A stretch of DNA of 64,000 nucleotides from NCBI GenBank assembly GCA_017302875.1, contig JAFLCA010000002.1, positions 1,118 to 65,117 of the forward strand. Direction: 5' to 3'. The position numbers and the translations under genes were made by a program. The stretch comes from Deltaproteobacteria bacterium. GTDB lineage: Bacteria; Bdellovibrionota_C; UBA2361; JAFLCA01. Below the pieces are notes generated by a model, which saw nothing but the letters and a program-made list of their open reading frames with translations, was not told the DNA's origin and searched no databases. Position 1 is the first letter of the stretch. Every line of letters starts with the position of its first letter. Shown here one piece after another: positions 21,873 to 48,866 of the stretch.

Positions 21873-22192
21873 TCTCAGCGAGCTCCTATGCAAAAATCGA
21901 ATGAGAGGCCAACGCTCTCCTGGCAAAGCGGCGTAACGTACTGTAATAACTAACTTTAAAAGTGTCTTTCGGTTTGGCTACTATACTCCAAGGCGCTCAT
22001 TTTGCAAACGAATCCTGCGTAAATCCCGGGCCCTGTAATTTCCGCTTAAGTTTTAGATCGTCATGGACGACTTCTAGGATTGAGTAGAGATCCTTTTGGA
22101 GCTCCGCTCAAAGATGCAACGGAATGCGTCTACCAAAACAGTAACGCCCCTTTTTGGTAGGCAAAGTTAATCTCCAAGGAATGGAGTGCTGT

Positions 22193-22537
22193 ATGGAAGT
22201 AATAATACCTTTAGGGGTTCCTCGTTCGTTCAACTTCGACTCTGCAGTGAGCCTTGCACGGGCAAAGCTCAGCGCCCCCAGCGTTCAAAAGTCAGTGCAC
22301 AGTAGCGGTCGCGATTTTCCCGATCCGCGCCTCTTTGACTTTGATCAGAACGGCACAGTCGATGCCAGCGACATAATCCAAGAACGTCAGATTCGGCGCC
22401 TCACGCAGGCGGCCGTGGAAGCTAAAACTCCGCTCTCCAAGTACGCGGCGCAAGCCGGCGAACAAGGAAGCGAAGAGGCTTCTCCTCCGACTGCCAGCTC
22501 GAAAGAGGAGCAAAGCGGAATTTCGATCTTGGTATAA
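22193..22537 (+). CDS. Hypothetical protein with EF-hand/dockerin-like Ca-binding loop
   Basis: ATG at 22193 has a GGAG 6 nt upstream; the ORF track start at 22154 is a TTG. Contains DFDQNGTVDASDII. Confidence 0.35.
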   Translation: MEVIIPLGVPRSFNFDSAVSLARAKLSAPSVQKSVHSSGRDFPDPRLFDFDQNGTVDASDIIQERQIRRLTQAAVEAKTPLSKYAAQAGEQGSEEASPPTASSKEEQSGISILV

Positions 22538-22547
22538 ACCCGAGTAG

Positions 22548-23855: not shown

Positions 23856-23859
23856 CGAG

Positions 23860-25443: not shown

Positions 25444-25514
25444 GTCAGTGTTGTTCAGGAGAATAACAATATTTTCGCCCACGGGAAGAGTTTTCGACAG
25501 AGCATTTAAACCGC

Positions 25515-27698: not shown

Positions 27699-27716
27699 TC
27701 GCTATATCTGAGATAA

Positions 27717-29486: not shown

Positions 29487-29498
29487 CATCAGACGCTT

Positions 29499-31142: not shown

Positions 31143-31233
31143 GAATCCACCCCCAAGTTTCGATCAGGACATAAAGCAAGCCGCCCGGGGCTCCAGATAG
31201 TTCTTTTTTCCGAGAAAAAGAGTTAATCTTTCC

Positions 31234-34200
31234 GTGCACCTATCAAGACTTCCTGCTACGCTCACAACGATGGAACGATTGCGATTCTTAAGCTTCAGAG
31301 GCCTGTCCCGTTCGACCTACTGCCTGCTTGGCGTCCTACTCCTCGGCATATTCTTTCGTCTGTACGCGATCACGCATGGCGTGACGTTTCACCCAGACGA
31401 GCGACATATCGTCGATGTGACTACCAAGCTGAGTCGTGCGGACATGAACCCGCACTCGTTCGCCTACGGCAGCTTCCCGTTCTACTTCTCATGGGCAGTC
31501 GCCCAATTGCTGGGACTACTTTGGCCGAGCTTGATGCGCTACGACGGAATGTTCATCGTCGGACGTTGCGTGGCAGCCTTCTTCGGGGTCGCTTCAATTC
31601 TGCTGACCTACCTGCTTGCTCAACGCGTCTATGCTTCGCGTTCTGTATCAATCTTGGCAGCTGCCCTTGTTGCGCTGAACGTATTTCACATTCAACTGTC
31701 TCGCTTCTTTGCGGTCGATATTTTTCTGACCGCTTGGTGCATCGCGGCTCTGGTCGCCTGCGTCCGCCTGTCTCAACAAAATCGCGCGCGTGACTATCTG
31801 CTGGCTGGCGTCTCACTTGGATTTGCATTCGCCACGAAGATAAGCGCGATGACCCTTTTGGCGCCGCTTTTTGTCGCCATCGCCCTGCATGGCATCGCTT
31901 CGAATCAGCTCTTTTCCTGGCGGCGCATTGCTTGGACTGTTGCCACCCTGCTTCTAGCCGGCCTTGTTTTCTTGGCCGTCGAGCCCTATGCGGTGCTCGA
32001 CTCGGTAACATTCCTGAAGAACACCAAAGAACAAACCGACATGGTGCAGGGTTTGTGGCGTCCGCCCTATACAATTCAGTACGCCGACACGACCCCGTAC
32101 CTGTACGTACTTTCGCAGATGACCTTCTACACGATGGGCATCCCCTTGGCGCTCGCCGTATTTTTGGGCTTTGGCTACTCCTTCTTTAGACAGTTCTCCA
32201 AGATTCGCCCGGCAGAACTCGTACTGCTGGCCTGGGTCATCCCGCTGTTTCTCTCTTTCGGTGGTCTTCAAGTTAAGTTTCCCCGTTACTTCCTGCCCAT
32301 ATATCCCGTGCTATTCGTCTTCGCAGCACACTTCCTTATCGAAATAGGCAGCGCTCTTGCTCGAACGAGAGTCCGCTTCTTGCGCAACGTTCCGACCGCG
32401 ATCGTCGTGACTTGGTGTTTTGTATATGCCGTGGCGTTTTCGCGAATTTACTCAGTCGATCATGGCTACGAAATTGCCAGTCGCTGGATTTTTCAGAATG
32501 TTCCGGCTGGCTCCACCATTTTGGGCGTGGACTGGGATGATAAATTGCCGCTCTTCCTGCCCGGCCTTGATCCACGCCGCTTTAGAGCAGAAGGGCGCGC
32601 GTGGGAACTCCCCCTCTATGGAAATGAAACCCCTGAAAAGTTAGCCGAAGTTTCCGAAAAGCTCGCACGCGGTGACTATATTATTTTCCCAACCGCACGT
32701 ACCTATGGGTCGATCCCACGAATCCCCGAAGAGTACGTATTCACGACCAACATGCTGCGATTACTGTTTGCCGAAAAGCTCGGGTACAAGCTTGAGCAAA
32801 CTATAAAAATTCGCCCGCACTTCGGCCCGATAGAATTTAATGATGATTTAGCCGATGAAAGCTTGTCGGTCTACGATCATCCAAAAATTTCAATATTCAA
32901 GAAAACCGAGGCCCTCTCAGCGCTCGACATTCGCCAGCGCATTCTCGACGCCTATCAGTATAGGCCCCTTCCTACGCTTCAAGATATGTTGTTGGCTGAT
33001 AGCGGCTCGGGTGAGTTAGCCACGACTACTGTGCGACCGACACTCCTTCCAACCTTCTTGTGGTTGCTGATCTTGGAGCTACTAGGACTCATTGCATTGC
33101 CATTTGCGATGAGTCTATTCCCGACTGCTCCGGACAAGGGTTATGGAATCGCAAAAACGGGCGGCCTTCTCCTCGTAGGGGCCAGCGTGTGGATCCTCGG
33201 TAGTTTGCATTGGATTCCCACGAATGCGCGATGCACCTGGATCATTCTCGGCATGCTGGCCGCAACGGCAATGTTTCTGTTTTCCCGGCAACATCCTTCA
33301 TTGCGGCAAATCCTCAAGCAGAATCACAAGCCGTTTTTAGTTGGCGAACTTCTCTTCCTCGTGGGATTTTTCGGATTTGTTATTTTGCGCGCTTTTCAGC
33401 CAGAGATTTTTTGGGGCGAAAAGCCGATGGACTTTACCTTCCTCAACTACTTCATTCGGCTTGAGAGCCTACCGCCCCAAGATCCCTGGGCCGCAGGGCA
33501 AGTCATGCGCTACTACTATTTCGGATCGTTCTTGATGGCGCTGTTGCATAAGCTGAGCGGTATTGATTCCGCAATCGGCTATAACCTTTCTATCGCAACA
33601 ATCGCCGGACTTTCTTTGTCAGGCGCCTACACCTTTATCCTTATCTGTTGCAGAAAAATTTGGCCCGCGGTGATTGGCGCCTTGGCGGTGCTTCTGATGA
33701 GCAATTTGGAAGTACTACGCTTGGTCTTCTTCAGCGAGAAGAAAGGTTTCGATCTTTTTTGGGCAAGCTCGCGCTTGTACCGCGAGCCCGGCATCACCGA
33801 GTATCCGCTGTGGGCATTACTATTCGCGGACCTCCACGCGCACCTGATTGTCTACCCGCTCATTTTCTTGTTGCTCGCTCTGGCGACCCGTTTCCTTCAT
33901 CACGAGCGGGACTCGCTCACCCTCTCCTTAGTCGCTCATCGCTTCGCCTGCGGCGTAGTTCTGAGCAGCTTGGTCGCCACTAATTCTTGGGATGCAATTT
34001 CTTACGGCTTTCTTTTCGGCGTCCTCATGCTCTACCGCTCCTTGCTTGTGGTGGTTGGTAGACGGGGTCGCTTTAAGCGCTTCTGTTCTGCGCTCCTCGA
34101 TTTGCTTCGTGACATTCCGCTGGTCAGCCTCGGAATACTGCCAATTTTTGTTCTCTTCATGCTGTCGTCCGGATCACAGGTGGCGTTGGGGTTCGGCTTT

Positions 34201-35295
34201 AATCAAAAGATCGAGTTCGACACTCTCGATCAAGTCCTTCGCCACCTGGGACAGTGGTTGCTGCCTATCTTTTTAGCCTTCCTCCTACTCTCCTTTAAGA
34301 ATTTACGGAGAACTCCGATCCGAGAAATCGTAGGAAGGCTACTGCTTGGACTGTTCTTCGGCGCCTTCCCGTTGGGGATTTGTTTTCTTACGCTGCTCCC
34401 CGCGTTCGAAGGCCGCGTACCAGCTCTTCAAGATTTACCGTGGTCCATTCCGGCGCTGTGCTCCGGGATTTCCTTCTTGGCGGTGTTTGTCGGGATGGGC
34501 AAACGCTACTCCCACGCCGTCCGCATGGCTTCCGTGTTCTGCTACTGCGCCATGTTGCTCATTTCGGGTGCCGAGCTGTGTTTCCTGATGGATCACATGA
34601 ACACGATCTTCAAGTTCTACAACGCCGTGTGGATGCTGTGCGGCTTGTCGGTGGCCTGCCTCCTGCCAACCTTGGTGTTGGAGCTATGGAATTTGCGACC
34701 ACGACTGCTTGCCTACACCGTTGGAAGGCCTCTGTGCTTGGCCGTCACGTCTGTATTTGCAATTGCGTGCGCCGGCTCACTGATGAACATGCATACCATG
34801 GTGACTTTCCAACGTGTGGCCGGGCCACGCCCGACGCTCGATGGCATGGCATATCAGCACTGGATGTATCCGCAGGAGGGCGAAGCCATTCGCTGGATTC
34901 GCAAGAATATTCGCGGCACTCCAACCCTTCTTGAAGCGCACGGGGACTCCTATCAGAACTTCACGCGCATAAGCATGAACACTGGTTTGCCAACGGTCTT
35001 GGGCTGGAGCTATCACGTACAGCAGCGTGGCACAGCCGACATTTCCATCGCCGAACGTCGCCGGCTTATAAACGAAATCTACTCGGCGCCCGACCCTGAA
35101 TCCGCAGTGGCGAACCTACAGATGCTGGGAGTCGATCTTATTTACGTCGGACCTCTGGAACGCGAACTTTACGAACGCGGCACGTACAATAGAGCGGGTC
35201 TACGCAAATGGGACGAACACCCAGACGTGTTCCAGCCGCTTTTCCGCTCCGGCACGAGCGTTGTTTACAAAACAACCTGGGCAAGGCTACCGTAG
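31234..35295 (+). CDS. Fusion protein: N-terminal GT39/PMT_2-like glycosyltransferase + C-terminal DUF2298 / 'YYY' membrane domain
   Basis: 1353 aa (GTG at 31234; alternative ATG at 31270). The N-terminus has FRLYAITHGVTFHPDERH...VGRCVAAFFGVASILLTYLLAQRVY...HIQLSRFFAVD. The C-terminal half has GQVMRYYYFG, ITEYPLWALLFADLHAHL and MNTIFKFYNAVW, and is paralogous to the next gene. Confidence 0.7.
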   Translation: MHLSRLPATLTTMERLRFLSFRGLSRSTYCLLGVLLLGIFFRLYAITHGVTFHPDERHIVDVTTKLSRADMNPHSFAYGSFPFYFSWAVAQLLGLLWPSLMRYDGMFIVGRCVAAFFGVASILLTYLLAQRVYASRSVSILAAALVALNVFHIQLSRFFAVDIFLTAWCIAALVACVRLSQQNRARDYLLAGVSLGFAFATKISAMTLLAPLFVAIALHGIASNQLFSWRRIAWTVATLLLAGLVFLAVEPYAVLDSVTFLKNTKEQTDMVQGLWRPPYTIQYADTTPYLYVLSQMTFYTMGIPLALAVFLGFGYSFFRQFSKIRPAELVLLAWVIPLFLSFGGLQVKFPRYFLPIYPVLFVFAAHFLIEIGSALARTRVRFLRNVPTAIVVTWCFVYAVAFSRIYSVDHGYEIASRWIFQNVPAGSTILGVDWDDKLPLFLPGLDPRRFRAEGRAWELPLYGNETPEKLAEVSEKLARGDYIIFPTARTYGSIPRIPEEYVFTTNMLRLLFAEKLGYKLEQTIKIRPHFGPIEFNDDLADESLSVYDHPKISIFKKTEALSALDIRQRILDAYQYRPLPTLQDMLLADSGSGELATTTVRPTLLPTFLWLLILELLGLIALPFAMSLFPTAPDKGYGIAKTGGLLLVGASVWILGSLHWIPTNARCTWIILGMLAATAMFLFSRQHPSLRQILKQNHKPFLVGELLFLVGFFGFVILRAFQPEIFWGEKPMDFTFLNYFIRLESLPPQDPWAAGQVMRYYYFGSFLMALLHKLSGIDSAIGYNLSIATIAGLSLSGAYTFILICCRKIWPAVIGALAVLLMSNLEVLRLVFFSEKKGFDLFWASSRLYREPGITEYPLWALLFADLHAHLIVYPLIFLLLALATRFLHHERDSLTLSLVAHRFACGVVLSSLVATNSWDAISYGFLFGVLMLYRSLLVVVGRRGRFKRFCSALLDLLRDIPLVSLGILPIFVLFMLSSGSQVALGFGFNQKIEFDTLDQVLRHLGQWLLPIFLAFLLLSFKNLRRTPIREIVGRLLLGLFFGAFPLGICFLTLLPAFEGRVPALQDLPWSIPALCSGISFLAVFVGMGKRYSHAVRMASVFCYCAMLLISGAELCFLMDHMNTIFKFYNAVWMLCGLSVACLLPTLVLELWNLRPRLLAYTVGRPLCLAVTSVFAIACAGSLMNMHTMVTFQRVAGPRPTLDGMAYQHWMYPQEGEAIRWIRKNIRGTPTLLEAHGDSYQNFTRISMNTGLPTVLGWSYHVQQRGTADISIAERRRLINEIYSAPDPESAVANLQMLGVDLIYVGPLERELYERGTYNRAGLRKWDEHPDVFQPLFRSGTSVVYKTTWARLP

Positions 35296-35301
35296 AAGGC
35301 A

Positions 35302-37350
35302 ATGGAAATTTGCCTGACTGTCGCTCTCATCGCTCTCGCACTTTGCGCCGTAGGAATAGCTCCTTTTGAAGGAACGCTTGCCCTTCTATTGCTGACTCCT
35401 ATTTGCGCCTACCCTTTGGGTCTGCTTTTACCGGCGGGGAAACCACTCTACGTTATCTCCTTCGCCTTCCTTCTGACCTTGTTGATGGTTCTTAGCAAAG
35501 GCCGCTCGCTATATAGCCGCGATGAAGCCCTACAAGCACTTCTTCCCGTCGGCTATTTTGTAGTTTGCTTCTCAGTTTTTTCCTATCTCTGCCACTCGTG
35601 GCCGGACTTCTATCAACTAGGCGAACGTCTGCGTGATTTTGCCGTGCTGAGCGCGGTTATCAAATCTCCAATTGAAGCGCGTGAACCCTGGCTTTCGGGG
35701 TTTCCGCTAAATTACTACCTATATTGGTATCGCTTTGGGCATATGCTCAGCAGCGTGCTGAAGCTTCCAATCTGGGAAGTCTATCATCAGCTGCAAGCCT
35801 TCACCTTCGCGCTCTTTAGCACCTCGATTTTCGTGCTCTTTAGAAAGTATGCGAAGTTTCCAGTCTGGGGGGCGCTATTCACCGCCGCGATTATTACGCT
35901 TGGCTCAAACGCCGAGGGAATTTTGTACTTTATCAAGAACGACCCCAATTGGTGGGGGCCGTCACGAGTCATTCCGGGCGCAATCAACGAGTTCCCGGCT
36001 TGGTCGTTCCTTCTGGGCGACGTACACCCACACTATTTAAATCTGGGGCTAATTCCTTTTCTCTTGGGTATTTTCCTGTGCGTCTCACGCTCCACGCTGC
36101 AAATCGGCGCAAAATTATACTCTATTGTGGGCATACTGGCAGTTGGCACGTTGTGGTCGTACAACGCGAACGCTTGGGAACTTCCCGTATGGCTGGGTTT
36201 AAGCGCCGCGATCTTTACGAGCTCGCTTGCCGTTCTGCCTGTCGCTGAACTCAGAAAGATAGAGCGCCGAGACTTCCTGTCACTCCCGGCAGCTCTTATT
36301 GTCGCGCTCGTTGTCTACCTTGCTTACTCGCTGGCCCTTTCCTCTCTCAACATCGTTCCGGCGCACATGCCGTTAAAACTCGTCGAGATGCCGGTACCTC
36401 GTACCAGCGCCTTAGATTTGCTGCGACATTGGGGAATCCCGCTGGCAATCATCATTTTGAGCAGCATTCTTTCTTTACGAAAAATCGAATGGATGGTGAT
36501 TGCCGCGCTGGCATTTGGATTAGCTTTCGCCACTCGCAGCGCCATCGTTGTTCTGACTCTTACCTTCGTACTTGCCGCGTTGATAGCTTGGAATTCTCGC
36601 AAGGAGCCCGGCAGCGCAAGCTTAAGCAACTGCGTCTTCACGTCGATGGGGCTCCTCGCGCTCTTGCTCATTATATTTCCCGAATTGGCGTTCCTCGACG
36701 ACTCCTACGGCGGAGAAAACGAGCGAATGAACACCATTTTCAAAGCCTATAGCGCAGCTTGGTTTCTGCTGCACGGCTTTGCATTTTATTTGCTGGCGAA
36801 ATTGCCGAGAGCTTGGCTCAATCGCTTCCCGGACTTTCCGTTATTGCCCTTGGTGTTGGTGGTAGGAATTTTATGGATTGGATTTTTCTTCCGCACTATC
36901 AAACTCAGAAAGTCGAGCGAATTTGGCGTACAGCCTGCGGCACAAGGTCTTAGCGACATTGAAAGACGCTTCCCAGGTTCTGCAACCACGATACAGATTC
37001 TCACGAGAAGCCGTCCGGGAATTGTGCTGGAAGCGCAGGGCCCCGCCTATGACTTCACCTCACACATCGCGACTCTTTCGAGCCAGACTGCATACCTAGG
37101 CTGGGCAAACCACATCAATTTGCTTTTACAGGTATACCCGGAAGTTTCTCGCCGCGAGAAAATTACAGAAGATATGTACCGTGAAGCTGATTGCGCCAAG
37201 AAAAAGACTCTGGCGACTCAGGAACGCATCAACTACATAGTGCTGGGCCCGCTTGAAAAGCGCGCCTTCCCAGAAGCAAATGCAGAGCAATTTTCCTGCT
37301 TCAAGGAACTGATCAGGTCTAAAGAGTATCTGGTCTTCGAGAACCAATAG
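35302..37350 (+). CDS. DUF2298 / 'YYY'-domain polytopic membrane protein
   Basis: 682 aa. GFPLNYYLYWYRFGH, INEFPAWSFLLGDVHPHY, MNTIFKAYSAAW and YLGWANH align with the C-terminal half of 31234-35295. Confidence 0.65.
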   Translation: MEICLTVALIALALCAVGIAPFEGTLALLLLTPICAYPLGLLLPAGKPLYVISFAFLLTLLMVLSKGRSLYSRDEALQALLPVGYFVVCFSVFSYLCHSWPDFYQLGERLRDFAVLSAVIKSPIEAREPWLSGFPLNYYLYWYRFGHMLSSVLKLPIWEVYHQLQAFTFALFSTSIFVLFRKYAKFPVWGALFTAAIITLGSNAEGILYFIKNDPNWWGPSRVIPGAINEFPAWSFLLGDVHPHYLNLGLIPFLLGIFLCVSRSTLQIGAKLYSIVGILAVGTLWSYNANAWELPVWLGLSAAIFTSSLAVLPVAELRKIERRDFLSLPAALIVALVVYLAYSLALSSLNIVPAHMPLKLVEMPVPRTSALDLLRHWGIPLAIIILSSILSLRKIEWMVIAALAFGLAFATRSAIVVLTLTFVLAALIAWNSRKEPGSASLSNCVFTSMGLLALLLIIFPELAFLDDSYGGENERMNTIFKAYSAAWFLLHGFAFYLLAKLPRAWLNRFPDFPLLPLVLVVGILWIGFFFRTIKLRKSSEFGVQPAAQGLSDIERRFPGSATTIQILTRSRPGIVLEAQGPAYDFTSHIATLSSQTAYLGWANHINLLLQVYPEVSRREKITEDMYREADCAKKKTLATQERINYIVLGPLEKRAFPEANAEQFSCFKELIRSKEYLVFENQ

Positions 37351-37380
37351 TCCGCTAACGTTCCCGCATACGCGAAGAAC

Positions 37381-39366
37381 TTACTGCGGCTTCTGCGCCT
37401 CAGGATTTGCGTTCGCCTTGGGATTCACGAGGAACCATGCGTACGAATATCCGACCGGGCTCCACGGAGTATGATTCAAGGAATAGCCAAGAAATCGCTT
37501 CAGGGTCATCAGTCGCAAATCTGGAACCCACCAACCTCGTAAATTAATGCGCTGCGCGCGGAACTGCTCAGGCGCTGGCGGTTCATTGTCTTTCCAGTCA
37601 CGAATAATGTAGTCGAACTTCGCATACTCTTCGGCAGGAGCCTGGAATTTGTATTGCGGGATATCTCGCATATACCATGTCATTGGCCAGGTTGATTCTC
37701 CCATCACCAGGAGCTGAGGTTTGTACCCTTTTGTCTCCGTGGCAATCTCTTCCTTGATGGTGTTGGCGATGCCGTGAATTTCTTGAGTGGTATGAACCTG
37801 GCTTATGTACTCACGTGCTTCACCGGCATAGACATAGTTCGTCAAAATGGCCGCACGGGTCGTATAGATACAGAACAGCGCCAGCAAGAACCACTTCAAG
37901 TTCACGGTTCCGAGCATTCCAGCCGCGCGAAAGCTCATCCCCAACACGATCAGAAAAACTCCGCTCGCCACCCAGAAGAGATTCTCAGGGCTGCCTTCAT
38001 CAGCTGTGAAAAGAACGCCCAAGACAAGGACAATGATGCCCGTGCTGCGAATCAGTCGGGCCACCGAAAAATGCTGCCAATCGCTCACAGGAAAACGGCG
38101 GAAATAATCATCAAAATAGAGCGCTAGGTAGATCAAACCTGCAATGAAGGGGTACGTGGTCAGCCACGGAACCTTCTCCCCGAGATAACTGTACGTGCAA
38201 AAGTTTGCTAAGAACAAATAGCCAAAAAAGGCTAAGCGTCGATTGCGTTCAAGCAGGTGCACGACCGTCGTTAACACCGCCTGCGGCACTAAAATTAAAA
38301 AGCCGCACACGTCGTAGGCGTCCTTGAGCTTCAACAATCCGAGATACTTGTAGTCAGCGATCGTCTTGTCACTGAGGTATAGAGAAACGACCAAAGCCAT
38401 GACGAAAATAACAACGCCGCATACCTGCACCCAGCGCGCAGCGCTTCGGTAGAATGTCCAAAGGTACAAGCCAAAGGCGACAATGAAGGCCAATTCGTAC
38501 CAGGACAGCATATAGAAATGAAAAAGCCAGGGCCCGGTAATGCGATCGATATTGTGCTGATGCATCCAGTAGCCCAGGCTCTCGCGGTACAAACCGTCCA
38601 AGATACCCTGCATGTAACGGAATCCTGCACTGTAAAGATAGCAGTAAATGAAAACTCCCAAGCAGACAGCATTTAGCACCGCAAATGAGTGCGTCTTTAT
38701 GTGTCGAGCCATCTGCGCAAAGAGTGGGTTCTTATCTCCAAGCGCCTGAGCAGCGAAGCAATATTCAAACACCAAATAGCCGAACAAGATCGCGACCGTC
38801 ACATAGGCATTCTCTTTAATGCAGAACTGTAAGGTCAGTGCGACAAAAAAGATCAGCGCCTTACGACCGGGAGCGGCCAAGGTCGCGCCGTACAGCATTG
38901 CGACCATGCAGGCGATGATAAGCGTGTCCTCGCGTAAGAATCGGGACCAGTAAATTAGGGTCGGAGACAAAGCAACAGCCGCCGTAAGTGCCAATACTGC
39001 AAATCGCGAAAAGTAGTGCCGAAACAGGAAAGGAACAAAGATCAGACAAGAGCCAACGAAGTTAATCGGAACTCGCGAAGCCCAGTCTCCCTGACCAAGC
39101 GTGTTGTACACGATGCGATACAAATTATAGAGAAAGGGCCCGTGGAGGAGCGCTTGATAGCGATAGTAGTTCTGATCCGGGAAATCAAAAAAATATTTCC
39201 CATACATGCCATGCAAGGACTCATCGTGATGAAAGGGACGCATGTCCAGGGCGAACCAGCGCAGCAGCAAGCCCCCGGCAATCAGAAGGACAAACACGCC
39301 CCATTCCAGTGGGGAGAAGAAATCACGCGCACGCGACTCAGGGGGAGCGGTCTGCTCTAGACTCAT
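37381..39366 (-). CDS. TIGR03663-like / GT39-like polytopic membrane glycosyltransferase
   Basis: 661 aa. LLLRWFALDMRPFHHDESLHGMYGKYFF...LLHGPFLY...ALSPTLIYWSRFLRED pattern. Confidence 0.6.
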   Translation of the reverse strand: MSLEQTAPPESRARDFFSPLEWGVFVLLIAGGLLLRWFALDMRPFHHDESLHGMYGKYFFDFPDQNYYRYQALLHGPFLYNLYRIVYNTLGQGDWASRVPINFVGSCLIFVPFLFRHYFSRFAVLALTAAVALSPTLIYWSRFLREDTLIIACMVAMLYGATLAAPGRKALIFFVALTLQFCIKENAYVTVAILFGYLVFEYCFAAQALGDKNPLFAQMARHIKTHSFAVLNAVCLGVFIYCYLYSAGFRYMQGILDGLYRESLGYWMHQHNIDRITGPWLFHFYMLSWYELAFIVAFGLYLWTFYRSAARWVQVCGVVIFVMALVVSLYLSDKTIADYKYLGLLKLKDAYDVCGFLILVPQAVLTTVVHLLERNRRLAFFGYLFLANFCTYSYLGEKVPWLTTYPFIAGLIYLALYFDDYFRRFPVSDWQHFSVARLIRSTGIIVLVLGVLFTADEGSPENLFWVASGVFLIVLGMSFRAAGMLGTVNLKWFLLALFCIYTTRAAILTNYVYAGEAREYISQVHTTQEIHGIANTIKEEIATETKGYKPQLLVMGESTWPMTWYMRDIPQYKFQAPAEEYAKFDYIIRDWKDNEPPAPEQFRAQRINLRGWWVPDLRLMTLKRFLGYSLNHTPWSPVGYSYAWFLVNPKANANPEAQKPQ

Positions 39367-39414
39367 GGCTTTCTTTAAGAGTTCAGGTAAACGCTATAGA
39401 CTATGAGGTATAGG

Positions 39415-40776
39415 CTATACTTTGAAGGTGCTCTCCTCAACACCCTTCAGCATATAGTCAGCCCATTCCACGCCCTGCATAAAGGAGTGATCCTGATTGG
39501 CGACCTCGTATTTCCAGCCACCGAATCGGCCTCGCGAGTAAACGCCCAGCTTTTGAAGGGCCGGCATCACGTCCTTAATAATGGCATCACGCTCCAATGA
39601 CGGGGTCGGATACCCGTATGGAGCATGGAAGGTCCACGTCGATACGATCTGATCTTTGTCGGAAATGAGCTTGGTATTACGCAACCCGGAAATGGTCTCC
39701 TCCAGAAGCGTTTTGTGGTTCACTGGTTTTGCCGGAGACTCGCTGGTTTCAGTCATCAGAGAAAACTGCGTCTTTATATCAGGAACATTGAGAGGACTGT
39801 ATTTGGAAAACAAAGTGACGCGGTAGAAGGGACAGTCGCTTTCCGGAAAGTACATCCAGCATTTGCTTTCAAGTTCAGGCTTGGGCTGTCCGCGTAGTCC
39901 CACGCCAACAATATTTGTTGAAGAATACTTCAGACCACCTGCGCGTTGCTTTAGGGCATCCGGTATTTCACTAACCAGCCCTGCGCAAATATCAAGCGGC
40001 ATGGTTGAGAGCAGATGCTCATACTGCACGCTGCTTCCATCCGAGAGCAGCACCGAGCGCTCTTGAGCATTAATTCTAGTGACGGTGCAGTTCGTGCGGG
40101 TCTTATCAGCTCCTACCATCTTGCCGACGGCATGCCAGATTGCACCAGTTCCTCCCTGCTTGGGAAAACGAAATTTGTTGTTCGGCCCCCAGGAAACATC
40201 ATCGCGCTCAAGTATTACATTCTCGAGCACTCGGTTCAGATCAACAACTGAAACTCGCTCCCCGATCCAATGATAGGCCAGCTCAGTAAGCGGATAGGCC
40301 CATACCTTGAAGTTATAGGGGTTCATGAACTCTTCGCCGATTCCGGCACCAAAGATCGACTGCGTCCATTCCGCAAAGTTCGCGGGCTTACGGGCAAGTG
40401 GATTCTTGGTGATTTCAATGATGCCCTTGAGGCACTTCCACACGGATTCTTTAGGCAGATAGCGAATGTTATTTTGGAAGGGATAGGGCACGAAGCGATT
40501 CTTTATCCATACCCAAGACTCTCGTTCATGCTCGAGCCAGCCGTCCTTGCCGAGCGATAAATCCATGACGTCATCGAAATACTTGTAGTGCGAGAACTGC
40601 ACGTGCCCGCCGATATCCCACCAAAATCCGGCATCATCTTTAAAGCTCGTGGCTAGCCCACCAACCCAAGGGTTTTTCTCCAGCAGTAAATAGTCCTGCT
40701 CGCCGAGATCTTTGAGACGATAGGCAGCACCAAGCCCTGTCGGGCCGGCACCAAGGATGAGGTATTTTACTTTCAT
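39415..40776 (-). CDS. glf: UDP-galactopyranose mutase, eukaryote-type (long form)
   Basis: 453 aa with FAD motif ILGAGPTGLGAAYRL. Shared blocks include GGHVQFSHYKYFDD, VPYPFQNNI, PYNFKVWAYP, WIGERV and WGPNNKFRFPKQGGTGAIW. Further blocks are CWMYFPESDCPFYRVTLFSKYSP, YGYPTPSLERD and SRGRFGGWKYEVANQDHSFMQGVE. These match my recollection of fungal/protozoan UGM sequences. Confidence 0.7.
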   Translation of the reverse strand: MKVKYLILGAGPTGLGAAYRLKDLGEQDYLLLEKNPWVGGLATSFKDDAGFWWDIGGHVQFSHYKYFDDVMDLSLGKDGWLEHERESWVWIKNRFVPYPFQNNIRYLPKESVWKCLKGIIEITKNPLARKPANFAEWTQSIFGAGIGEEFMNPYNFKVWAYPLTELAYHWIGERVSVVDLNRVLENVILERDDVSWGPNNKFRFPKQGGTGAIWHAVGKMVGADKTRTNCTVTRINAQERSVLLSDGSSVQYEHLLSTMPLDICAGLVSEIPDALKQRAGGLKYSSTNIVGVGLRGQPKPELESKCWMYFPESDCPFYRVTLFSKYSPLNVPDIKTQFSLMTETSESPAKPVNHKTLLEETISGLRNTKLISDKDQIVSTWTFHAPYGYPTPSLERDAIIKDVMPALQKLGVYSRGRFGGWKYEVANQDHSFMQGVEWADYMLKGVEESTFKV

Positions 40777-40789
40777 AAGCGCGTTCTTA

Positions 40790-41566
40790 TTAGCGTCCGC
40801 GCAAATTTAGAGCAGCACGCTGGGCTTTAATATCCTTGAGTGCGGAGGGAAGCGCCAATCGAAAATCGATTAATTCTCGCACGCAGCGTAAGCAGGCTTT
40901 TATAAGTCGCCAGCGAACAATAGAGACAGTTCCCGTTTCGCGTTCGCGATGCGTTATTGGAATAGCCATCAAGTCTTGACCGTCGCGCGCGGCCAGAACT
41001 GCCAAGAAAATGTTCGGTGCAAAAACTGTTGGGTTAATATGCCCAAGCAAAATCTTTAAGTAGTCACCCTGAATGAGCCTGAATGGAATATTGGAGTCCC
41101 GCAGCCAGGAGCCAAAGAGCACAAAATTTAAAACGCGCAGAATGCGAGTGATAACGAGTCGATGGAAAGCATCGTGGCGGTCACGACGAAACCCTAAGAT
41201 AAAATTTGACTGCGAGCGCTTATTCCAAAGTATCGCGAGCTCTGCACTATCGAACTGATCGTCGCTGTCGACATGGAAAACCCATTGCGCACCAAGCTCA
41301 ACAGCCTTGTCGTAGGCTGTCCGTAAGGCCTTACCATGCCCGCCGTTAGTCTGATGCACCACCACAAGTTTCGGGTAGGTTTTAGCCGCCTCATCAAGCA
41401 TGGCGCCCGTACGATCTTTTGAACCGTCGTTGACGACGATTAACAGTCCCGATTCGAGACCAAGGCCGTCGATGGCGCTGATCCATTTTTTGACTACGTC
41501 TTTAATGCAGCCCTCTTCGTTGTAGGCCGGCATAACGATGCAAAGTTCAGGGCGCGAAGTCGGCAT
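40790..41566 (-). CDS. Glycosyltransferase family 2, Dpm1/Ppm1-like (candidate polyprenyl-phosphate hexosyltransferase)
   Basis: 258 aa. CIVMPAYNEEGCI...VVNDGSKDRT...GGHGKALRTAY...HVDSDDQ GT-A motifs. The polyprenyl-phosphate acceptor is inferred from its position next to the GT-C genes. Confidence 0.6.
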   Translation of the reverse strand: MPTSRPELCIVMPAYNEEGCIKDVVKKWISAIDGLGLESGLLIVVNDGSKDRTGAMLDEAAKTYPKLVVVHQTNGGHGKALRTAYDKAVELGAQWVFHVDSDDQFDSAELAILWNKRSQSNFILGFRRDRHDAFHRLVITRILRVLNFVLFGSWLRDSNIPFRLIQGDYLKILLGHINPTVFAPNIFLAVLAARDGQDLMAIPITHRERETGTVSIVRWRLIKACLRCVRELIDFRLALPSALKDIKAQRAALNLRGR

Positions 41567-41812
41567 GAGGTACCTGGAATTTAAGGAACTGTATTAACAG
41601 CGGTTTTTTCTAAAGCTAGCCGGTTTAGGCAGTAACTTCAATAAGTTAAATAACTTAGTCGTCAGCTTTTAGATGCGGCTAAACGACAAACTCCAGACTC
41701 AAATTAACGCAATAATATTAGTGGGTTAAAGATTATTTGAAGCATTGTTATATTTCCTGCTGATAGATAAGTGGGGGACAGGGTGTGAAGTGTGCAATCG
41801 CGAGAGATTCGT

Positions 41813-42358
41813 ATGCGTGTGTCATCAAAATCCCCCCTTCGAGAACGCGGCGGCGTTATCACCGAGTGCGTGCTGGTAATCCCCGTCATGCTGGTTCTCT
41901 TTACCGGCCTTACTGAGCTGGGTCGAACCTTCTCCCAGATAAACTGGGTCGCCAATATTTCCTACGAAGTTGCTATGGTCGGCGCCAGCGTATCCGAGAC
42001 TGCCGGTGGCGCGCTTGCAATGGACGGGCGCTATGCTCAGCTTAGTGCGATTCCGTACTACAAAGTCACCTTGCCGAGCGATCCAACCTCCAAGGTCTAC
42101 AATCAGACTGACCTACACGTCAGCGGGCAACCACCTCGAAGCGTTGAAGTTGCTATCCATGCGACACTACCCACGTTGCTGTCACATGTATCACCCACCT
42201 TTGACGTACGCGCGACCGCGCCGATTTTGGTGCTTTCGAATGTGCTCCCGGGGGGACTCAGCACCTTTAGCAATCCAAATCCGCTTTATGACTGCTGCGG
42301 CCGCGAGTATTCGGGCGCGCCCATTGATACGTGCTTGAATCCCCCGCCCGCTTGCTAG
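41813..42358 (+). CDS. TadE-like pseudopilin-type protein (cassette A, gene 1)
   Basis: MRVSSKSPLRERG|GVITECVLVIPVMLVLFTGLTELGR is a TadE-type N-terminus with Glu at +5 after the Gly. The upstream GTG at 41792 is an alternative start. The C-terminus is Cys/Pro-rich. Confidence 0.65.
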   Translation: MRVSSKSPLRERGGVITECVLVIPVMLVLFTGLTELGRTFSQINWVANISYEVAMVGASVSETAGGALAMDGRYAQLSAIPYYKVTLPSDPTSKVYNQTDLHVSGQPPRSVEVAIHATLPTLLSHVSPTFDVRATAPILVLSNVLPGGLSTFSNPNPLYDCCGREYSGAPIDTCLNPPPAC

Positions 42359-42502
42359 TTGAACGCTAAGATACTCCATTGAGGAAAGGCGACACGCGCA
42401 ATAGAATCAATGGATTAAGCGGCCCGCGATCTTTTTAAGCCCTTTTTGATAGAACTGTGTCGTACGCTGGTGCGGCGCTTTGGACTTTAAACAAGTCGGT
42501 AC

Positions 42503-43900
42503 ATGCGTTTGTTTTCTCGTAGAATTTTCAGCAGCAAGCTTCCCGCCCAAGACGGTGCCTCATTTATTGAAGCGGCGCTGACGTTGCCAATATTTTTGAT
42601 GGTGCTTCTCTTCACTATCGACATGGCGCGCTTCTTCTTTATTTGGGCAGTGATTAATTTTGCCGCCCACCACGCGGTCGATTACGCTGCGAAGATCGAA
42701 GTCGAGGCGCGAACAGATGAGGCAAGCTGCTTCTCGCAACCGGCAAGCTGCACCGATTATCGAAATCGAATTTTATCTCCAACCGGCGTACTCGCCAAAG
42801 CCGAGAGGTACGCGAAATATGCCGCAACCGAAGGCCCCAGTGCTTCCCAACTTGTCCCTTTTAATCACTATTGGAACCCGGACTACACGCAAGCACCGCC
42901 TGCTGGCCACTATGGATCAGGCCTTGTTGCGAGCGGCAACATTCGATTGGCAGGATTTTTACGCCCTGGCGAGTACATTCGCCGAGAAGACGGGAGCGGG
43001 CAGTTTATAGAGCATCCGACCCGTAAGCCTTTAACGGATCACTTGTATTGGCCTGGAATCAGCGAGAACTGGGCGACTATTTTAGAGAACAATCCGCTGC
43101 TCGTGCACATCGAAGTGCGCTTCAAGGCAGTAACACCGTTCATCCCTGAGTTGCGCATCGTTGCCAATCAGATTGCGTATCGCCGCAGCCGTACGCCGGG
43201 AATCGGCGGGCCGATTACTCCAATTCCATCGAACACCCCAACAGCGACAGCAACGGCGACGGCATCCAACACGTTCACGCCGCGACCTTCAGAGACAGCA
43301 ACCGCGACCGCTTCTCCGACGGAGACGACCACTCCGACGCAGACGGCAACCATGACACCAACGGGCACCGAGACCCCAACGGCAACTCAAACTCCCACGG
43401 GAACCGCTACTCCAACTTTTAGCCCGACTGGAACGGTAACCCCAACGCCATCGCTATCACCAACGCCGACGCAGACGCCAACATTTACGGCAACGCCAAC
43501 AGCTACCCCAACTCCGACACCGACGGGTACGCCAACGCCGACACCAACGTATACGACTAGCCCCACACCAAGCATCACTCCGACCGAATCGCCAACGGGA
43601 ACCGTAACTCCAACGGCCACTCAATCTCCCACGGCCACACAGTCGCCAACTCCATCGTTAACGCCGAGTGAAACACCGACAGCCACGGCAACACCGACTC
43701 ACACGGCCACACGCACGCCTACAGCAACCCCAACTCCGAGCCTCACGGCGACTGCAACGCCCACGCATACGGCAACTATAACACCAACTCCTACTCATAC
43801 ACCGACGGTTCATTGTGGTGATTGCGTAACGAATGGCTGCCAGCAGGACTGTCGTGAATACTGTTGTTCAAGTGGCTGCGGCGATTTGTGCGGAGGATAA
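42503..43900 (+). CDS. TadE-like N-terminus + globular domain + Thr/Pro-rich stalk + Cys-rich C-terminal tail (cassette A, gene 2)
   Basis: 465 aa. ...PAQDG|[28 protein letters not shown] at the N-terminus. Residues about 231-436 are almost entirely T/P/A/S. The last 28 aa are [28 protein letters not shown]. Confidence 0.75.
43193..43810 (+). repeat. Degenerate in-frame ACN/CCN repeat region encoding the Thr/Pro stalk
   Basis: Runs of TPTATxTPTxT peptide units, seen in the nucleotide sequence as repeated acg/aca/acc-cca/ccg/ccc codons. The mirror V/G-rich ORFs on the opposite strand are artefacts. Confidence 0.85.
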
Positions 43901-43958
43901 GTTGATGCAGACTTTTGACCTGCCTCACATTGCGAATAGTCTCTAAGAGGTTTTAGCT

Positions 43959-46184
43959 ATGCGCCAAGAAAAAGGTCTCTATATCGTATTCTTCGCTCTC
44001 CTGCTTTTCGTGCTGCTCGGATTAGTGGCGCTGGCGCTCGGCCTCGGCTACATCGGCACTAATAAGACTCGCCTGCAAAATGGCGTCAACTTAGCCGCTC
44101 TCGCGGCGCTTGAGAAATTCGCCGGTTTACCTCAGAGCGATTCGTACCTAGTGCGCGCCGACAAAGCCCGCGATCGGGCGAGTGAGATTTTTGCAGCAAA
44201 TATTTTACCCGGTGTAGAGCACCCCTTGGGAGAACTTGGCCACCATGGCGCAGCCGGGCCCGGTGGAACAATTACCCTTGGCAACTGGTATCAGAAGAAA
44301 CCAAATCCCGTCGACGATCCCTGCACGGGAAGCTACCCCTGCTTCGTCGCGAACCCCGATCCAAGCGGTTCCGTGCCTAACAACCAACCAATGAATGCAG
44401 TGCGTATTGAAGCCCACAATCAAAGCAACAATCCGCTGCTTTTCAGACTTGGAAGATTTTTAGGAAAAGATAGCTTCATCCTGTCGTCGAGCGCCACAGC
44501 GACGGTCGTTCCACGCTGTACCGCGTACTTGATGGACGTTAGCGATTCATCTTACTTCGAAACTCATCCAACGTTGCCGATTGGATCAAGCCAGGTAAAT
44601 TCCTGCATTACTCCTGGCAGTGTTCCCCCGGCCTGCCCGGACCCTAGCTGCCTTCCCGGATGTTTAGCCGGAGAACCTGCATGTTATGGCGGCTGTAATC
44701 CTTACAAAACAGCGAATTTAAGCGTCACACCGATTAATTTTGGTCTTGGCGCATATCGGTATAGCCCTCAGTACACGCCAACTCATTTGGAATGCGCAGC
44801 TTCGACGAACTACGATCTGGGCAACCAACTTTCCCGTCAGACAGTGTATTGGTGTAACTCGCCTCATATTGGCGCCCCTGATGGAGCACGTCCCGGCGTT
44901 CCACCTTCCTCAGGCATCTTCCGTCACTATCAGTCAGACTATGAACTAGAAGATTCACCGCTTCCAGGAGGCGGCGTTGGTCAAATCTGGGTTGATAAAC
45001 TGTATGTCGCAGGGGCAACGGCGGCAGACCCAGTGTACGATGGTCCGCAACCCTTCACTCGGAATTTTTTGGCCTTCAACGCCGGGCTGCGACAAGTTCA
45101 GTCCACGACAGTTGGCGGAGATCTTTCCTATATCATGGCTTTCACCGGACAGCCGCGCAGTTCAGTTCCAGCCACGGGATTAACTTCGGATTTGGGATTC
45201 CTGATTCAATTAACCAATCTCGACAACCGTGGAAAAAGAGATTGGCAAGGCGTTCCTGTAACTACAGAAATCCACCCCAATTTTATTGATTTCGGCTGGG
45301 CACCGTTTCCGGGCGAAGGATTCGACTCAACCAGCGCGATTGGAAATGCTGTGTATTTCGCAGCCGAGCGCCTTCACTCCAGCTGCCCGTCGCAGTCGCG
45401 CAAAACTATTTTGCTGGCATCTGACGGACAAGCCAACACTCACTTCGGCGCGATTCCGGAACCGCAGGGCCTAAACGGATACAACAACTATGTCGCAGCC
45501 GTAAATCAACTTCTTAATACTTCGATCCCGGTACTCGGCGGCGGCCCCAATAAACCGCCGATTCTACAGATGCTCAAAGAGTATGAAATTTCATTCTCGA
45601 TGATTATGGACGGGTTCCATATTGCACCGAACTTTCTCAACATAGCGAGCGGTGAGTGCGGAGCGGCGTCGACTTGGACACCGGGTTCCGGCTTCGGAAA
45701 TGACGACCCGAAGTGCTATTTTTCCTTTCAGGAAGGTTACGCGCACGGCTTTGGCGGCAAACGTTCCCCTTCGCCCCTGTTTGACTGGGAAAGCTACGAC
45801 CCCTCTGGAACACCGACCGATCCAGCGACCGCGTACGACAACGCCGGAAGAATTCCTGGCTGGTCATTCGGAGATCCGATTGGGGTATGGAGCGACGTTG
45901 CGCTGGAGACCGGCGGGTATTTCTGCCCACTTCTGGCAGTTGCGCCAGTCGGGCAGTATGTCGACTTTTATGGCGATCGCGGCGGAGCTGCTTGTGATGC
46001 TCCCTGTCCAGGCGGGGTAAATTGCAGCCCCTGTGTACTACGCAGCGCGGCACGAAATCCCAATCCAGGTCAAAACATTCAGAAGTTTGCACCGCAGTAC
46101 ACTAGGAAAAGCGAGCAGGCAGCGCAGTGCGCGCGTCAGGCAGTTGGACTCAATCCATTTACCCTGGTCGAGAAAGACAATTAA
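43959..46184 (+). CDS. TadG-like protein with N-terminal hydrophobic helix and vWA domain (cassette A, gene 3)
   Basis: 741 aa. MRQEKGLYIVFFALLLFVLLGLVALALGLGYIG matches the Tad/TadG N-terminal pattern. MIDAS DVSDS at 44535-44549, later LLASDGQAN. Good AAGAGG Shine-Dalgarno. Confidence 0.7.
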   Translation: MRQEKGLYIVFFALLLFVLLGLVALALGLGYIGTNKTRLQNGVNLAALAALEKFAGLPQSDSYLVRADKARDRASEIFAANILPGVEHPLGELGHHGAAGPGGTITLGNWYQKKPNPVDDPCTGSYPCFVANPDPSGSVPNNQPMNAVRIEAHNQSNNPLLFRLGRFLGKDSFILSSSATATVVPRCTAYLMDVSDSSYFETHPTLPIGSSQVNSCITPGSVPPACPDPSCLPGCLAGEPACYGGCNPYKTANLSVTPINFGLGAYRYSPQYTPTHLECAASTNYDLGNQLSRQTVYWCNSPHIGAPDGARPGVPPSSGIFRHYQSDYELEDSPLPGGGVGQIWVDKLYVAGATAADPVYDGPQPFTRNFLAFNAGLRQVQSTTVGGDLSYIMAFTGQPRSSVPATGLTSDLGFLIQLTNLDNRGKRDWQGVPVTTEIHPNFIDFGWAPFPGEGFDSTSAIGNAVYFAAERLHSSCPSQSRKTILLASDGQANTHFGAIPEPQGLNGYNNYVAAVNQLLNTSIPVLGGGPNKPPILQMLKEYEISFSMIMDGFHIAPNFLNIASGECGAASTWTPGSGFGNDDPKCYFSFQEGYAHGFGGKRSPSPLFDWESYDPSGTPTDPATAYDNAGRIPGWSFGDPIGVWSDVALETGGYFCPLLAVAPVGQYVDFYGDRGGAACDAPCPGGVNCSPCVLRSAARNPNPGQNIQKFAPQYTRKSEQAAQCARQAVGLNPFTLVEKDN

Positions 46185-46414
46185 ATCGGGCGTTCCCTAG
46201 CGTGCGTTTACGCATCAAAACCTCTTACCGAGGGAGCTGAACGGCTCTGCGCAGGGTGAAAATCTACGAGTTTTTCCTAGTATGGCTACGATGTACTTGG
46301 ATTTCTCGCCAGTTACCGCACTTCACCTGAAGCAAAAGTAAACTACCCCCTCTAAAGAGCCGATAGGTGACATAGGAGCTTCATGCTGGGGCTTCTTAAA
46401 CATATTGTGAAATC

Positions 46415-47230
46415 ATGCGTGACTACACTTCATTGAGTCCTCGTTCCCTCAAGCGAGCTAACATGAAAGGTTCAGTCCTGCTGGAGTTCGCTATCGTCGT
46501 GCCCCTTCTGGTGGTCTTTTTTCTGGGCATCTCCGGAATTGGACAGCTACTTGGGCATGTAACTTGGATCTCACAAACGACCTACGCTGCGGCTCTCTTC
46601 GCAGCCGACGTGCCGCAGCCTGACGGGCCAGCTAAAGTTCAGCAAGCTACCGAGCGTTTAAGCGAAGCTCAAAATCGAGGTCAAGTCAGCGGTGATTGGA
46701 ATGCGCCAGTCTACACCGTAGGACAGATCACAGGCAAACCCATTGTAAGCGTAAGCGTCCCTGCGAATGTTTCGCCTCTCGTAAGCGCCATGTTTTCATC
46801 CAGTATCGGTGTGAGCGTAGCAGCTCCCTACCTTGTACCGAGCCAAGCAGCCTTCGCTGGGTTTAACGATTTTGCCAATCCCTCTGGCATCGTTACCTGC
46901 TATGCAGCCTCTTGTAACCCGATCGCACCGTATAATCCCGGGATTAGGAAAATAACCACCTTACCGGGTGAGACGAATTACGCTTACTATAATCCCACGA
47001 ACGAAGAGTCCACGAGAGCTTTTGAAACCTTTATGTCCACCATGGGCGGCCTGGATCGAAGTAGTCCGACTTACATAGAGGATGCTGCTGCTACGTACGA
47101 GAAGCTTATGTCAGCTTTTGAGGGTGCTATTTCCAACGATCCCTCGCTAGCCAAAGCGCTGACTCGATTGGACCCGATGACGACTGAATCGAAAAAAAGC
47201 ACCCGTACAGAGTATACGATTCTAGATTAG
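46415..47230 (+). CDS. TadE-like pseudopilin-type protein (cassette B, gene 1)
   Basis: 271 aa. ...SLKRANMKG|SVLLEFAIVVPLLVVFFLGISGIGQ TadE-type N-terminus with Glu at +5. Confidence 0.65.
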   Translation: MRDYTSLSPRSLKRANMKGSVLLEFAIVVPLLVVFFLGISGIGQLLGHVTWISQTTYAAALFAADVPQPDGPAKVQQATERLSEAQNRGQVSGDWNAPVYTVGQITGKPIVSVSVPANVSPLVSAMFSSSIGVSVAAPYLVPSQAAFAGFNDFANPSGIVTCYAASCNPIAPYNPGIRKITTLPGETNYAYYNPTNEESTRAFETFMSTMGGLDRSSPTYIEDAAATYEKLMSAFEGAISNDPSLAKALTRLDPMTTESKKSTRTEYTILD

Positions 47231-47339
47231 AACCTAAGGGCTTGGCCGCACTGACATTTACCGGGGTGATAGGGGCGTGCTAAGGTAAGTATTCTGTATA
47301 AGAATGCGTGCTGATTAAAAGACTTACCCTGGGGAAAGT

Positions 47340-48818: not shown

Positions 48819-48866
48819 TGCGCAAATTGCTTGGCATAGGATAGGATTTTTATAGTAAGAATTTTT

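Follow-up and report, generated by a model that had tools for sequence, protein, structure and literature searches.

The window analysed here is a stretch of 64,000 nucleotides from contig JAFLCA010000002.1 of a Deltaproteobacteria bacterium (GTDB lineage Bdellovibrionota_C). Three genes follow one another on its minus strand at 41566..37381, with gaps of 13 and 48 bp. They encode a glycosyltransferase of family GT2, a UDP-galactopyranose mutase (UGM) dependent on flavin adenine dinucleotide (FAD), and a membrane protein resembling Agl23 (Table 1). Judged from the sequence, these genes form one operon with the GT2 gene as its first member. A scan for promoters and terminators over 37000..42600 gave counts not above those in shuffled sequence. 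The biosynthesis of galactofuranose (Galf) is a drug and diagnostic target, and to our knowledge Galf is absent from mammals. The field splits UGMs into "prokaryotic" and "eukaryotic" classes (PMC3624792), and the window gene is very probably a bacterial UGM of the class that has so far been characterised only in eukaryotes, as both its sequence and its predicted structure indicate. The class itself is already known; the window gene is a new bacterial member of it.

An earlier sequence-only reading had noted in the 453-codon reading frame seven sequence blocks shared with UGMs of the eukaryotic type. All seven can be read literally in the protein (GGHVQFSHYKYFDD, VPYPFQNNI, PYNFKVWA, WGPNNKFRFPKQGGTGAIW, CWMYFPESDCPFYRVTLFSKYSP, YGYPTPSLERD and SRGRFGGWKYEVANQDHSFMQGVE), and they match the UGMs of Trypanosoma cruzi (TcUGM; 4dsg) and Aspergillus fumigatus (AfUGM; 3uka/3ute) column for column. 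In a phmmer search of all PDB chains, the window UGM matched TcUGM (4dsg) with E = 3.4e-136 over query residues 4-449 and AfUGM (3ute) with E = 1.8e-134 over residues 3-451, and the next matches were unrelated flavoenzymes at E > 1e-6. The comparison with known UGMs that the same reading had proposed thus returned TcUGM and AfUGM as best matches (E ~1e-136), and not an amine oxidase, a protoporphyrinogen oxidase (PPO) or a classical bacterial Glf. Identity to both enzymes is 48%. This value falls inside the range found among eukaryotic UGMs (47-60%) and far from that between the two classes (14-18%; PMC3624792). The further claim that the protein is not a classical Glf also holds. It scored 18 bits on TIGR00031, the curated equivalog model of classical Glf with a cut-off of 303.75, and no classical Glf chain appeared at E < 0.01 in the PDB search; these two results rule out that identity. 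A Pfam search gave no match to PF03275. Compared with AfUGM, the window UGM is without an insert of about 18 residues (AfUGM 349-366) and without the C-terminal extension, and thus resembles the compact form of TcUGM.

The active site was compared residue by residue. Residues listed for the AfUGM active site (Table 2 of PMC3322874), together with those of the histidine loop and the mobile loops (PMC3322874; PMC3624792), were mapped through the phmmer alignment, and 29 of 29 are identical in the window UGM. The GxGxxG motif for FAD reads GAGPTG (residues 9-14), and G56-G57-H58 corresponds to the G-G-H histidine loop, which was described as unique to eukaryotic UGMs (PMC3624792). R182, R327, R447, Y419 and Y453 of AfUGM correspond to R174, R319, R417, Y389 and Y423 of the window protein, and N457, E373, W167 and Y162 correspond to N427, E343, W159 and Y154. 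At the positions that separate the classes (F66, R91, Q107, N163, P206-N207, W315, Y317 and Q458 in AfUGM numbering), which differ in classical Glf (PMC3322874, Table 2), all residues are of the eukaryotic class. All contacts to galactose and uridine (R182, N207, W315, R327, N457, Y104, F106 and Q107 of AfUGM) are identical as well. A signature of 23 residues is identical in all 40 of the 40 named bacterial and eukaryotic sequences that were aligned. An AlphaFold2 (AF2) model built from a 58-sequence alignment (pLDDT 91.5) has the long-form three-domain fold. It superposes on 4dsg with TMq/TMt scores of 0.95/0.91 and a root-mean-square deviation of 1.6 A, and on AfUGM with TM scores of 0.92-0.94. 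Among structural matches to the model, UGMs rank first (E 1e-58, 44-46% identity) and PPO forms a second tier (~1e-25, 14-17%); classical UGMs enter the ranking only at position 48 (3mj4, TMq 0.65).

The partner encoded upstream is predicted, from its sequence and its model, to be a polyprenyl-phosphate glycosyltransferase of the type of ArnC, GtrB and dolichyl-phosphate-mannose synthase (DPMS). Its best sequence match in PDB is ArnC (E = 1.9e-11, residues 8-232), and GtrB is also among the closest. The AF2 model has a pLDDT of 94.4, and its top 25 Foldseek neighbours are solely ArnC, GtrB or DPMS, with E from 2e-14 to 6e-10 and TMq up to 0.77. Ordinary GT-A enzymes start only further down, at ~1e-8, about four orders of magnitude lower. 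The DxD motif (D100-S-D102) is invariant, and the C-terminus is a single long helix (218-252), with no transmembrane helices in the protein. In the source's annotation the gene was called at 247 aa (P0419). Since a conserved E-L-x-I-V stands ahead of its methionine in orthologues, the 258-aa start at 41566 looks correct.

The pairing of this GT2 with UGM extends far beyond the window. Upstream sequence sufficed for this comparison in 74 UGM loci. In 42 of them the next gene upstream, on the same strand, is a GT2 orthologue (49-60% identity), and these pairs span Bdellovibrionota, Bacteroidota, Verrucomicrobiota, Planctomycetota and the candidate phyla radiation (CPR). At least 24 of the top GT2 database matches agree in the length of their longest contig with a top UGM match, which suggests that the two lie on shared contigs. 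The linkage was also followed in reverse, from an alignment of the GT2, in metagenome contigs with 75 loci that had downstream sequence, within a range of 4 kb. A UGM of the window class was found in 31 of the 75, in 29 cases immediately downstream. Six further GT2 loci have a classical Glf 3-24 bp downstream, and the four of these that were scored on TIGR00031 reached 312-441 bits (cut-off 303.75). On the sequence evidence, the exchange of Glf for UGM downstream of GT2 is a non-orthologous replacement in one slot. That either of two very distant mutases fills this slot is the strongest evidence that the GT2 family uses UDP-Galf, and from its fold and its gene linkage we consider such use by the window GT2 probable. 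In two of the six Glf loci the order is GalE-GT2-Glf; these compact cassettes (L153, 2258..5062, and L154) place a full route from UDP-Glc to UDP-Galf around the GT2.

Several variants of the arrangement were seen. Loci of the Bacteroidota type have the order of a 564-aa protein with 7-8 transmembrane segments, an acyltransferase-3, the GT2 and an 893-aa beta-propeller protein. A comparison of L089, L092, L099, L103, L110 and others with L009, L011, L023 and L027 shows this order both with UGM and without it between the GT2 and the propeller gene, and this presence/absence polymorphism may switch the sugar form. In L145 (858..2905) and L150 (1248..3339), the GT2 is preceded, with an overlap, by a distant UGM-like flavoprotein of about 25% identity to the window UGM. 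One locus from Bdellovibrionales (L001) carries two UGM paralogues of 453 and 455 aa, at 4641..6002 and three genes downstream, and has PMT_2 proteins on both sides of its GT2-UGM pair.

Membrane proteins accompany the pair more often than UGM alone. With partners defined as proteins of 300 aa or more that have six or more transmembrane segments and lie within about 2.5 kb, a polytopic protein of this kind was found near 25 of 42 GT2-UGM pairs versus 9 of 32 UGMs without GT2 (Fisher p = 0.0098). Partners that could be named were PMT_2 (both sides in L001; L070), a GT87+PMT_2 fusion (L025) and Agl23-like proteins (the window, L002, L006, L061, L065, L146, L147 and L156). The order GT2-UGM-Agl23-like was found in the window and in L002, L006, L061, L146, L147 and L156, and in L081 and L152 the Agl23-like gene follows GT2 directly. 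UGM loci without this GT2 partner resemble, with their GT2, GT4 and Wzt genes, ordinary clusters for polysaccharides.

The Agl23-like protein of the window scores 219 bits on TIGR03663 ("flippase activity-associated protein Agl23"; cut-off 126). As a single sequence it found no match in PDB. A match came only with a family profile; built from five orthologues, it hit ArnT (5ezm) with E = 1.6e-7 over the first transmembrane segment (TM1) and first loop, and hhalign gave a probability of 90% against the PMT_2 group. An acidic motif, RPxHHDES, is invariant after TM1 in the family. Next to the operon lies a block of six polytopic proteins at 23860..37350, each with 7-25 predicted transmembrane segments (Table 1). 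The 682-aa DUF2298 gene is syntenic in L002, L006 and L065, and the 1353-aa fusion, in which an HPDER motif follows TM1, is syntenic in L002 and L006.

Table 1. Predicted genes of the GT2-UGM operon and of the adjacent membrane-protein block (window coordinates; TM, predicted transmembrane segments)
Predicted product	Coordinates	Strand	Length (aa)	Basis and remarks
GT2 partner of UGM	40790..41566	-	258	Pfam Glycos_transf_2; ArnC/GtrB-type; no TM helices
UGM, FAD-dependent, so-called eukaryotic class	39415..40776	-	453	PDB phmmer, active-site mapping, AF2 model
Agl23-like (TIGR03663), GT-C/ArnT-related, ~9 TM	37381..39366	-	661	TIGR03663; ArnT profile match
DUF2298/Chlor_Arch_YYY, ~11 TM	35302..37350	+	682	PF10060 1.1e-50; TIGR03662 1.5e-60; convergent with operon
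PMT/ArnT-like GT-C N-terminal domain fused to DUF2298/Chlor_Arch_YYY, ~25 TM	31234..35295	+	1353	PMT_2, PMT and DUF2298 matches; TIGR03662 439 bits (cut-off 300)
Polytopic membrane protein, ~7 TM	29499..31142	+	547	No Pfam/NCBIfam match
Polytopic membrane protein, ~11 TM	27717..29486	+	589	No Pfam/NCBIfam match
PMT_2-type GT-C-like membrane protein, ~11 TM	25515..27698	+	727	PF13231 E = 1.4e-9
Polytopic membrane protein, ~9 TM	23860..25530	-	556	Block edge; no family match; relative in L002

The remaining content of the window (topoisomerase IV, phosphoenolpyruvate carboxykinase (PEPCK), fumarase, transketolase, a TonB receptor and Tad-like pilus genes) is that of an ordinary chromosome of a Gram-negative bacterium, which by its best matches and synteny probably belongs to Bdellovibrionota. 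TadE/TadG-like pilus-assembly genes at 41792..51113 (plus strand) diverge from the operon and flank it in L002 and L006, too. A gene for a VKOR-thioredoxin/DsbA fusion of disulfide-bond formation (22548..23993, minus strand) abuts the polytopic block. Far from the operon, a second GT2 of 336 aa at 6021..7031 (plus strand) is weakly MftF-like. The gene for the TonB-dependent receptor at 1247..3184 (minus strand), whose uptake function is probably regulated by B12, is directly preceded by a cobalamin riboswitch (3291..3476, minus strand; 76 bits, E = 4.7e-17). DNA nearly identical to 36800..42200 is present in metagenomes from activated sludge, biofilm and bioreactors. A search of public contigs for the exact UGM protein gave no record. 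Low-depth contigs from two runs labelled as RNA-Seq cover portions of each of the three operon genes; their depth does not suffice as evidence of expression and gives a weak hint only.

The "eukaryotic" UGM class is widely distributed in bacteria. In a search of 5.8 billion proteins, grouped at 90% identity, the window UGM matched at least 7,988 clusters with E <= 1e-10, and the best 120 of these cluster matches are 59-86% identical to it. The labels (JGI) present among the best 120 read "protoporphyrinogen oxidase", "FAD-dependent oxidoreductase" or "NAD(P)-binding protein". An exhaustive search of representatives at 50% identity gave 1,033 at E <= 1e-30, and among the best 150 of these the majority retain 21 or more of the 23 signature residues. 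In GTDB contigs, with one genome per species, at least 591 stretches encode relatives. They come from many phyla and lineages, including Bdellovibrionota, Bacteroidota, Gloeobacterales, Leptospiraceae, Verrucomicrobiota, Planctomycetota, Lentisphaerota, Armatimonadota, Sumerlaeota, Myxococcota and a CPR lineage, and cultured carriers in Bacteroidota are Flectobacillus, Aquirufa and Siphonobacter. Judged by these sequence searches, the class is common and diverse in bacteria and not exotic, and the label "eukaryote-type" reflects which members were studied. Its bacterial members usually carry the wrong label of a PPO. That the class belongs largely to bacteria and is mislabelled systematically by annotation pipelines is a corollary of the reading of the GT2 as a dedicated Galf-handling family, which is set out below, and the two together may equally well prove right or wrong. 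The UGM family also contains fusion proteins (P0256, P0310, P0312 and P0343), of which one of 1551 aa has two UGM-like stretches and the others are 1191, 1017 and 1186 aa long.

How the bacterial and eukaryotic members are related was approached from several sides. Among the matches in GTDB contigs, the best relatives of the window UGM are in metagenome-assembled genomes (MAGs) of Bdellovibrionota (68-69%), and eukaryotic sequences reach 46-51% identity at most. With TcUGM as the query, kinetoplastids are followed by the chromerid Vitrella (54%) and then by proteins from MAGs of Acidimicrobiales, Gemmatimonadota and Sumerlaeia (52-55%); no fungal UGM was among the top 120 matches of this query. 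Identities between bacteria and eukaryotes (43-57%) overlap those between eukaryotic supergroups (48-58%). In a bootstrapped neighbour-joining (NJ) tree of named sequences, a clade A made of the window, Bdellovibrionota, Bacteroidota, Planctomycetota, Leptospiraceae and cyanobacteria was split from eukaryotes plus a bacterial clade B in 199 of 200 replicates, and the eukaryotes were monophyletic in only 131 of 200. When further representatives were included, the deep branches became star-like and the intended divergent outgroups scattered. The tree is read here only for its unrooted splits among named sequences.

Each of the three proteins has counterparts in known systems. The window UGM shares with eukaryotic UGMs (TcUGM 4dsg; AfUGM/UgmA 3ute/3uka; Leishmania GLF) homology over the full length at the 48% identity given above for TcUGM and AfUGM, the FAD motif, the G-G-H loop and the catalytic set of Arg and Tyr residues. 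It differs in being bacterial and in standing in an operon with a predicted lipid-phosphate glycosyltransferase and a GT-C-like protein, whereas eukaryotes use UDP-Galf in the Golgi. With classical Glf (Escherichia coli, Klebsiella, Mycobacterium tuberculosis and D. radiodurans) it would share the reaction, the superfamily of three-domain flavoenzymes and, in the six loci above, the slot downstream of GT2; the class-diagnostic residues, the failure on TIGR00031 and the structural rank of 48 set the two apart.

The operon as a whole is similar to the ArnC/ArnT, GtrA/GtrB/Gtr* and mycobacterial PpgS systems, in which a GT2 polyprenyl-phosphate synthase is encoded together with a GT-C enzyme. In sequence and structure the window GT2 most resembles ArnC and GtrB, and ArnT is the nearest counterpart of the membrane protein. 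However, in the window an embedded UGM would supply Galf as the sugar, the synthase is without transmembrane helices like PpgS and human DPM1, and no gene for a small flippase was found. Lipid-linked furanose donors are found in the systems of decaprenyl-phospho-arabinofuranose in mycobacteria and undecaprenyl-phospho-ribofuranose (GT136; PMC11127046), where a furanose on polyprenyl phosphate is delivered to a periplasmic GT-C enzyme. These pentofuranose donors are derived from phosphoribosyl pyrophosphate (PRPP) via a phosphoribosyltransferase, whereas the window system would use a hexofuranose taken from a nucleotide sugar by a GT2. The 2024 paper that extended three-component systems to furanoses treats PRPP-derived pentofuranoses only and never mentions Galf (PMC11127046).

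Another parallel is found in archaea. Agl22 reportedly makes dolichyl-phosphate (Dol-P) hexose, judging by the title of a 2020 paper by Lu and co-workers. Agl22 and Agl23 of Haloarcula hispanica thus pair a Dol-P-hexose synthase with a TIGR03663 membrane protein that is required for flipping or using the lipid-linked hexose (PMC11182771), and the gene downstream in the window passes TIGR03663. The differences are that the system is archaeal, uses a dolichol carrier and Glc/Gal in pyranose form and has no mutase; the window GT2 is likened to Agl22 by role. In H. hispanica, Agl22 and Agl23 act in making and using lipid-linked Glc/Gal for extracellular glycosylation, Agl22 being a glycosyltransferase of N-glycosylation, and purified Agl23 translocates a lipid-linked oligosaccharide in liposomes (PMC11182771). 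By analogy, the Agl23-like protein of the window may supply a flippase function (PMC11182771).

A lipid-linked route for Galf can be proposed from these components. UGM with reduced FAD would interconvert UDP-galactopyranose (UDP-Galp) and UDP-Galf. On the cytoplasmic side of the inner membrane, the GT2 would then move Galf from UDP-Galf to polyprenyl phosphate, giving polyprenyl-phosphate-Galf. The Agl23-like protein, the adjacent GT-C-type proteins (25515..37350) or both would flip this lipid-linked Galf and use it in the periplasm, and the acceptor would be an envelope component. Because the sequence-only reading had seen the UGM beside a GT-C cluster, it expected Galf in the product of that cluster. 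GT-C enzymes take lipid-phosphate-linked sugars and not UDP-sugars, so that the adjacency of UGM alone does not imply Galf in the product. We infer that the missing link between the mutase and the GT-C cluster is the conserved upstream GT2 of the ArnC/GtrB type, a gene on which the sequence-only reading had not commented. For the whole route, whose last step is drawn by analogy, we see an even chance or slightly better. Whether a dedicated family of ArnC/GtrB-like GT2 enzymes, coupled to either UGM class across phyla, makes polyprenyl-phosphate-Galf for use by GT-C enzymes is in our estimate evenly balanced.

Several observations weigh against this route. In roughly half of the GT2 loci, neither class of UGM is encoded within 4 kb, and some Bacteroidota-type loci keep the full synteny with UGM simply missing; the GT2 family may thus accept other UDP-sugars, or the UGM may be encoded elsewhere in the genome. 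Beside the pairs from Bacteroidota stands an acyltransferase-3, an unclassified protein with 7-9 transmembrane segments or a MauE-like protein, none of them a recognisable GT-C. No GalE was found in the window, and no small reading frame with at least three transmembrane segments, as expected of a GtrA-, SMR- or MATE-type flippase, was found in 22000..42600. The transmembrane helices typical of ArnC and GtrB are missing from the GT2. However, polyprenyl-phosphate glycosyltransferases without such helices exist (PpgS and human DPM1), so that their absence is compatible with the mechanism. Finally, as far as is known, the Galf transferases of bacteria are themselves GT2 enzymes of the cytoplasm and take Galf straight from UDP-Galf.

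This last point leads to the alternative that the flavoenzyme is a true UGM and the GT2 is an ordinary cytoplasmic Galf transferase, which would add Galf directly to a glycan on lipid pyrophosphate or to another acceptor, the GT-C neighbours being unrelated. Such a GT2 would be in line with the characterised bacterial Galf transferases of the GlfT1/GlfT2 type, which are UDP-Galf-using GT2 enzymes (PMC7278926), with the lack of transmembrane helices in the window protein, and with the many GT2-UGM pairs that have no recognisable GT-C alongside. It fits poorly with the fold, as polyprenyl-phosphate glycosyltransferases take all of the first 25 places among structural neighbours and soluble GT-A enzymes score worse by four or more orders of magnitude, and equally with the enrichment of polytopic proteins beside GT2-UGM pairs and with the repeated gene orders, that is, GT2-Agl23-like in two loci and GT2-UGM-Agl23-like in the window and six others. 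On balance we regard this alternative as rather unlikely. It is much less probable still that the enzyme is a mutase for another nucleotide sugar such as UDP-GalNAc, UDP-arabinose or a 6-deoxyhexose. Some homologues of classical Glf have a relaxed or altered specificity, but the identity of every galactose and uridine contact of AfUGM in the window UGM argues for UDP-Gal, to which the two GalE-GT2-Glf loci point as well.

Two further alternatives concern the identity and the origin of the UGM, and both are extremely improbable. An amine oxidase or PPO in place of a mutase is what general annotation would suggest, since Pfam assigns to the protein only the broad Amino_oxidase family (65 bits, above the gathering threshold) and NAD_binding_8, the JGI labels of relatives include PPO, and PPO is the second tier of fold matches. 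This identity is effectively refuted by the score on TIGR00562, the PPO equivalog model (28.7 bits against a cut-off of 97.85), by the ranking of folds, in which PPO at ~1e-25 stands against UGM at 1e-58, and by the complete UGM active site. A recent acquisition from a eukaryote, in line with the question of inter-domain transfer raised by the sequence-only reading, might be suspected because the only characterised relatives are eukaryotic. The window UGM falls instead into a bacterial clade of many phyla (199 of 200 replicates), with a best match of 69% in Bdellovibrionota. Bacterial identities among the best cluster matches (59-86%) stand against 46-51% for eukaryotes, the locus is syntenic with Bdellovibrionota MAGs, and the GC content of the gene (50%) is near that of the window (50-56%). 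Since the protein groups with bacteria and its eukaryotic relatives do not exceed about 51% identity, recent transfer into the bacterium is rejected.

UDP-Galf has been stated to be the sole source of Galf residues (2020 review, PMC7278926), and no report of a lipid-phosphate-linked Galf donor was found in the searchable literature. The conserved GT2 partner of UGM suggests that there may be a second way to deliver Galf. If true, a lipid-phosphate Galf donor would extend three-component glycosylation from hexopyranoses and pentofuranoses to a hexofuranose, and the existence of the cultured carriers named above makes the idea directly testable. The bacterial abundance of the "eukaryotic" UGM class and its mislabelling bear on genome annotation, on the prediction of glycans with Galf in bacteria from the environment, and on the debate over where the eukaryotic enzymes came from.

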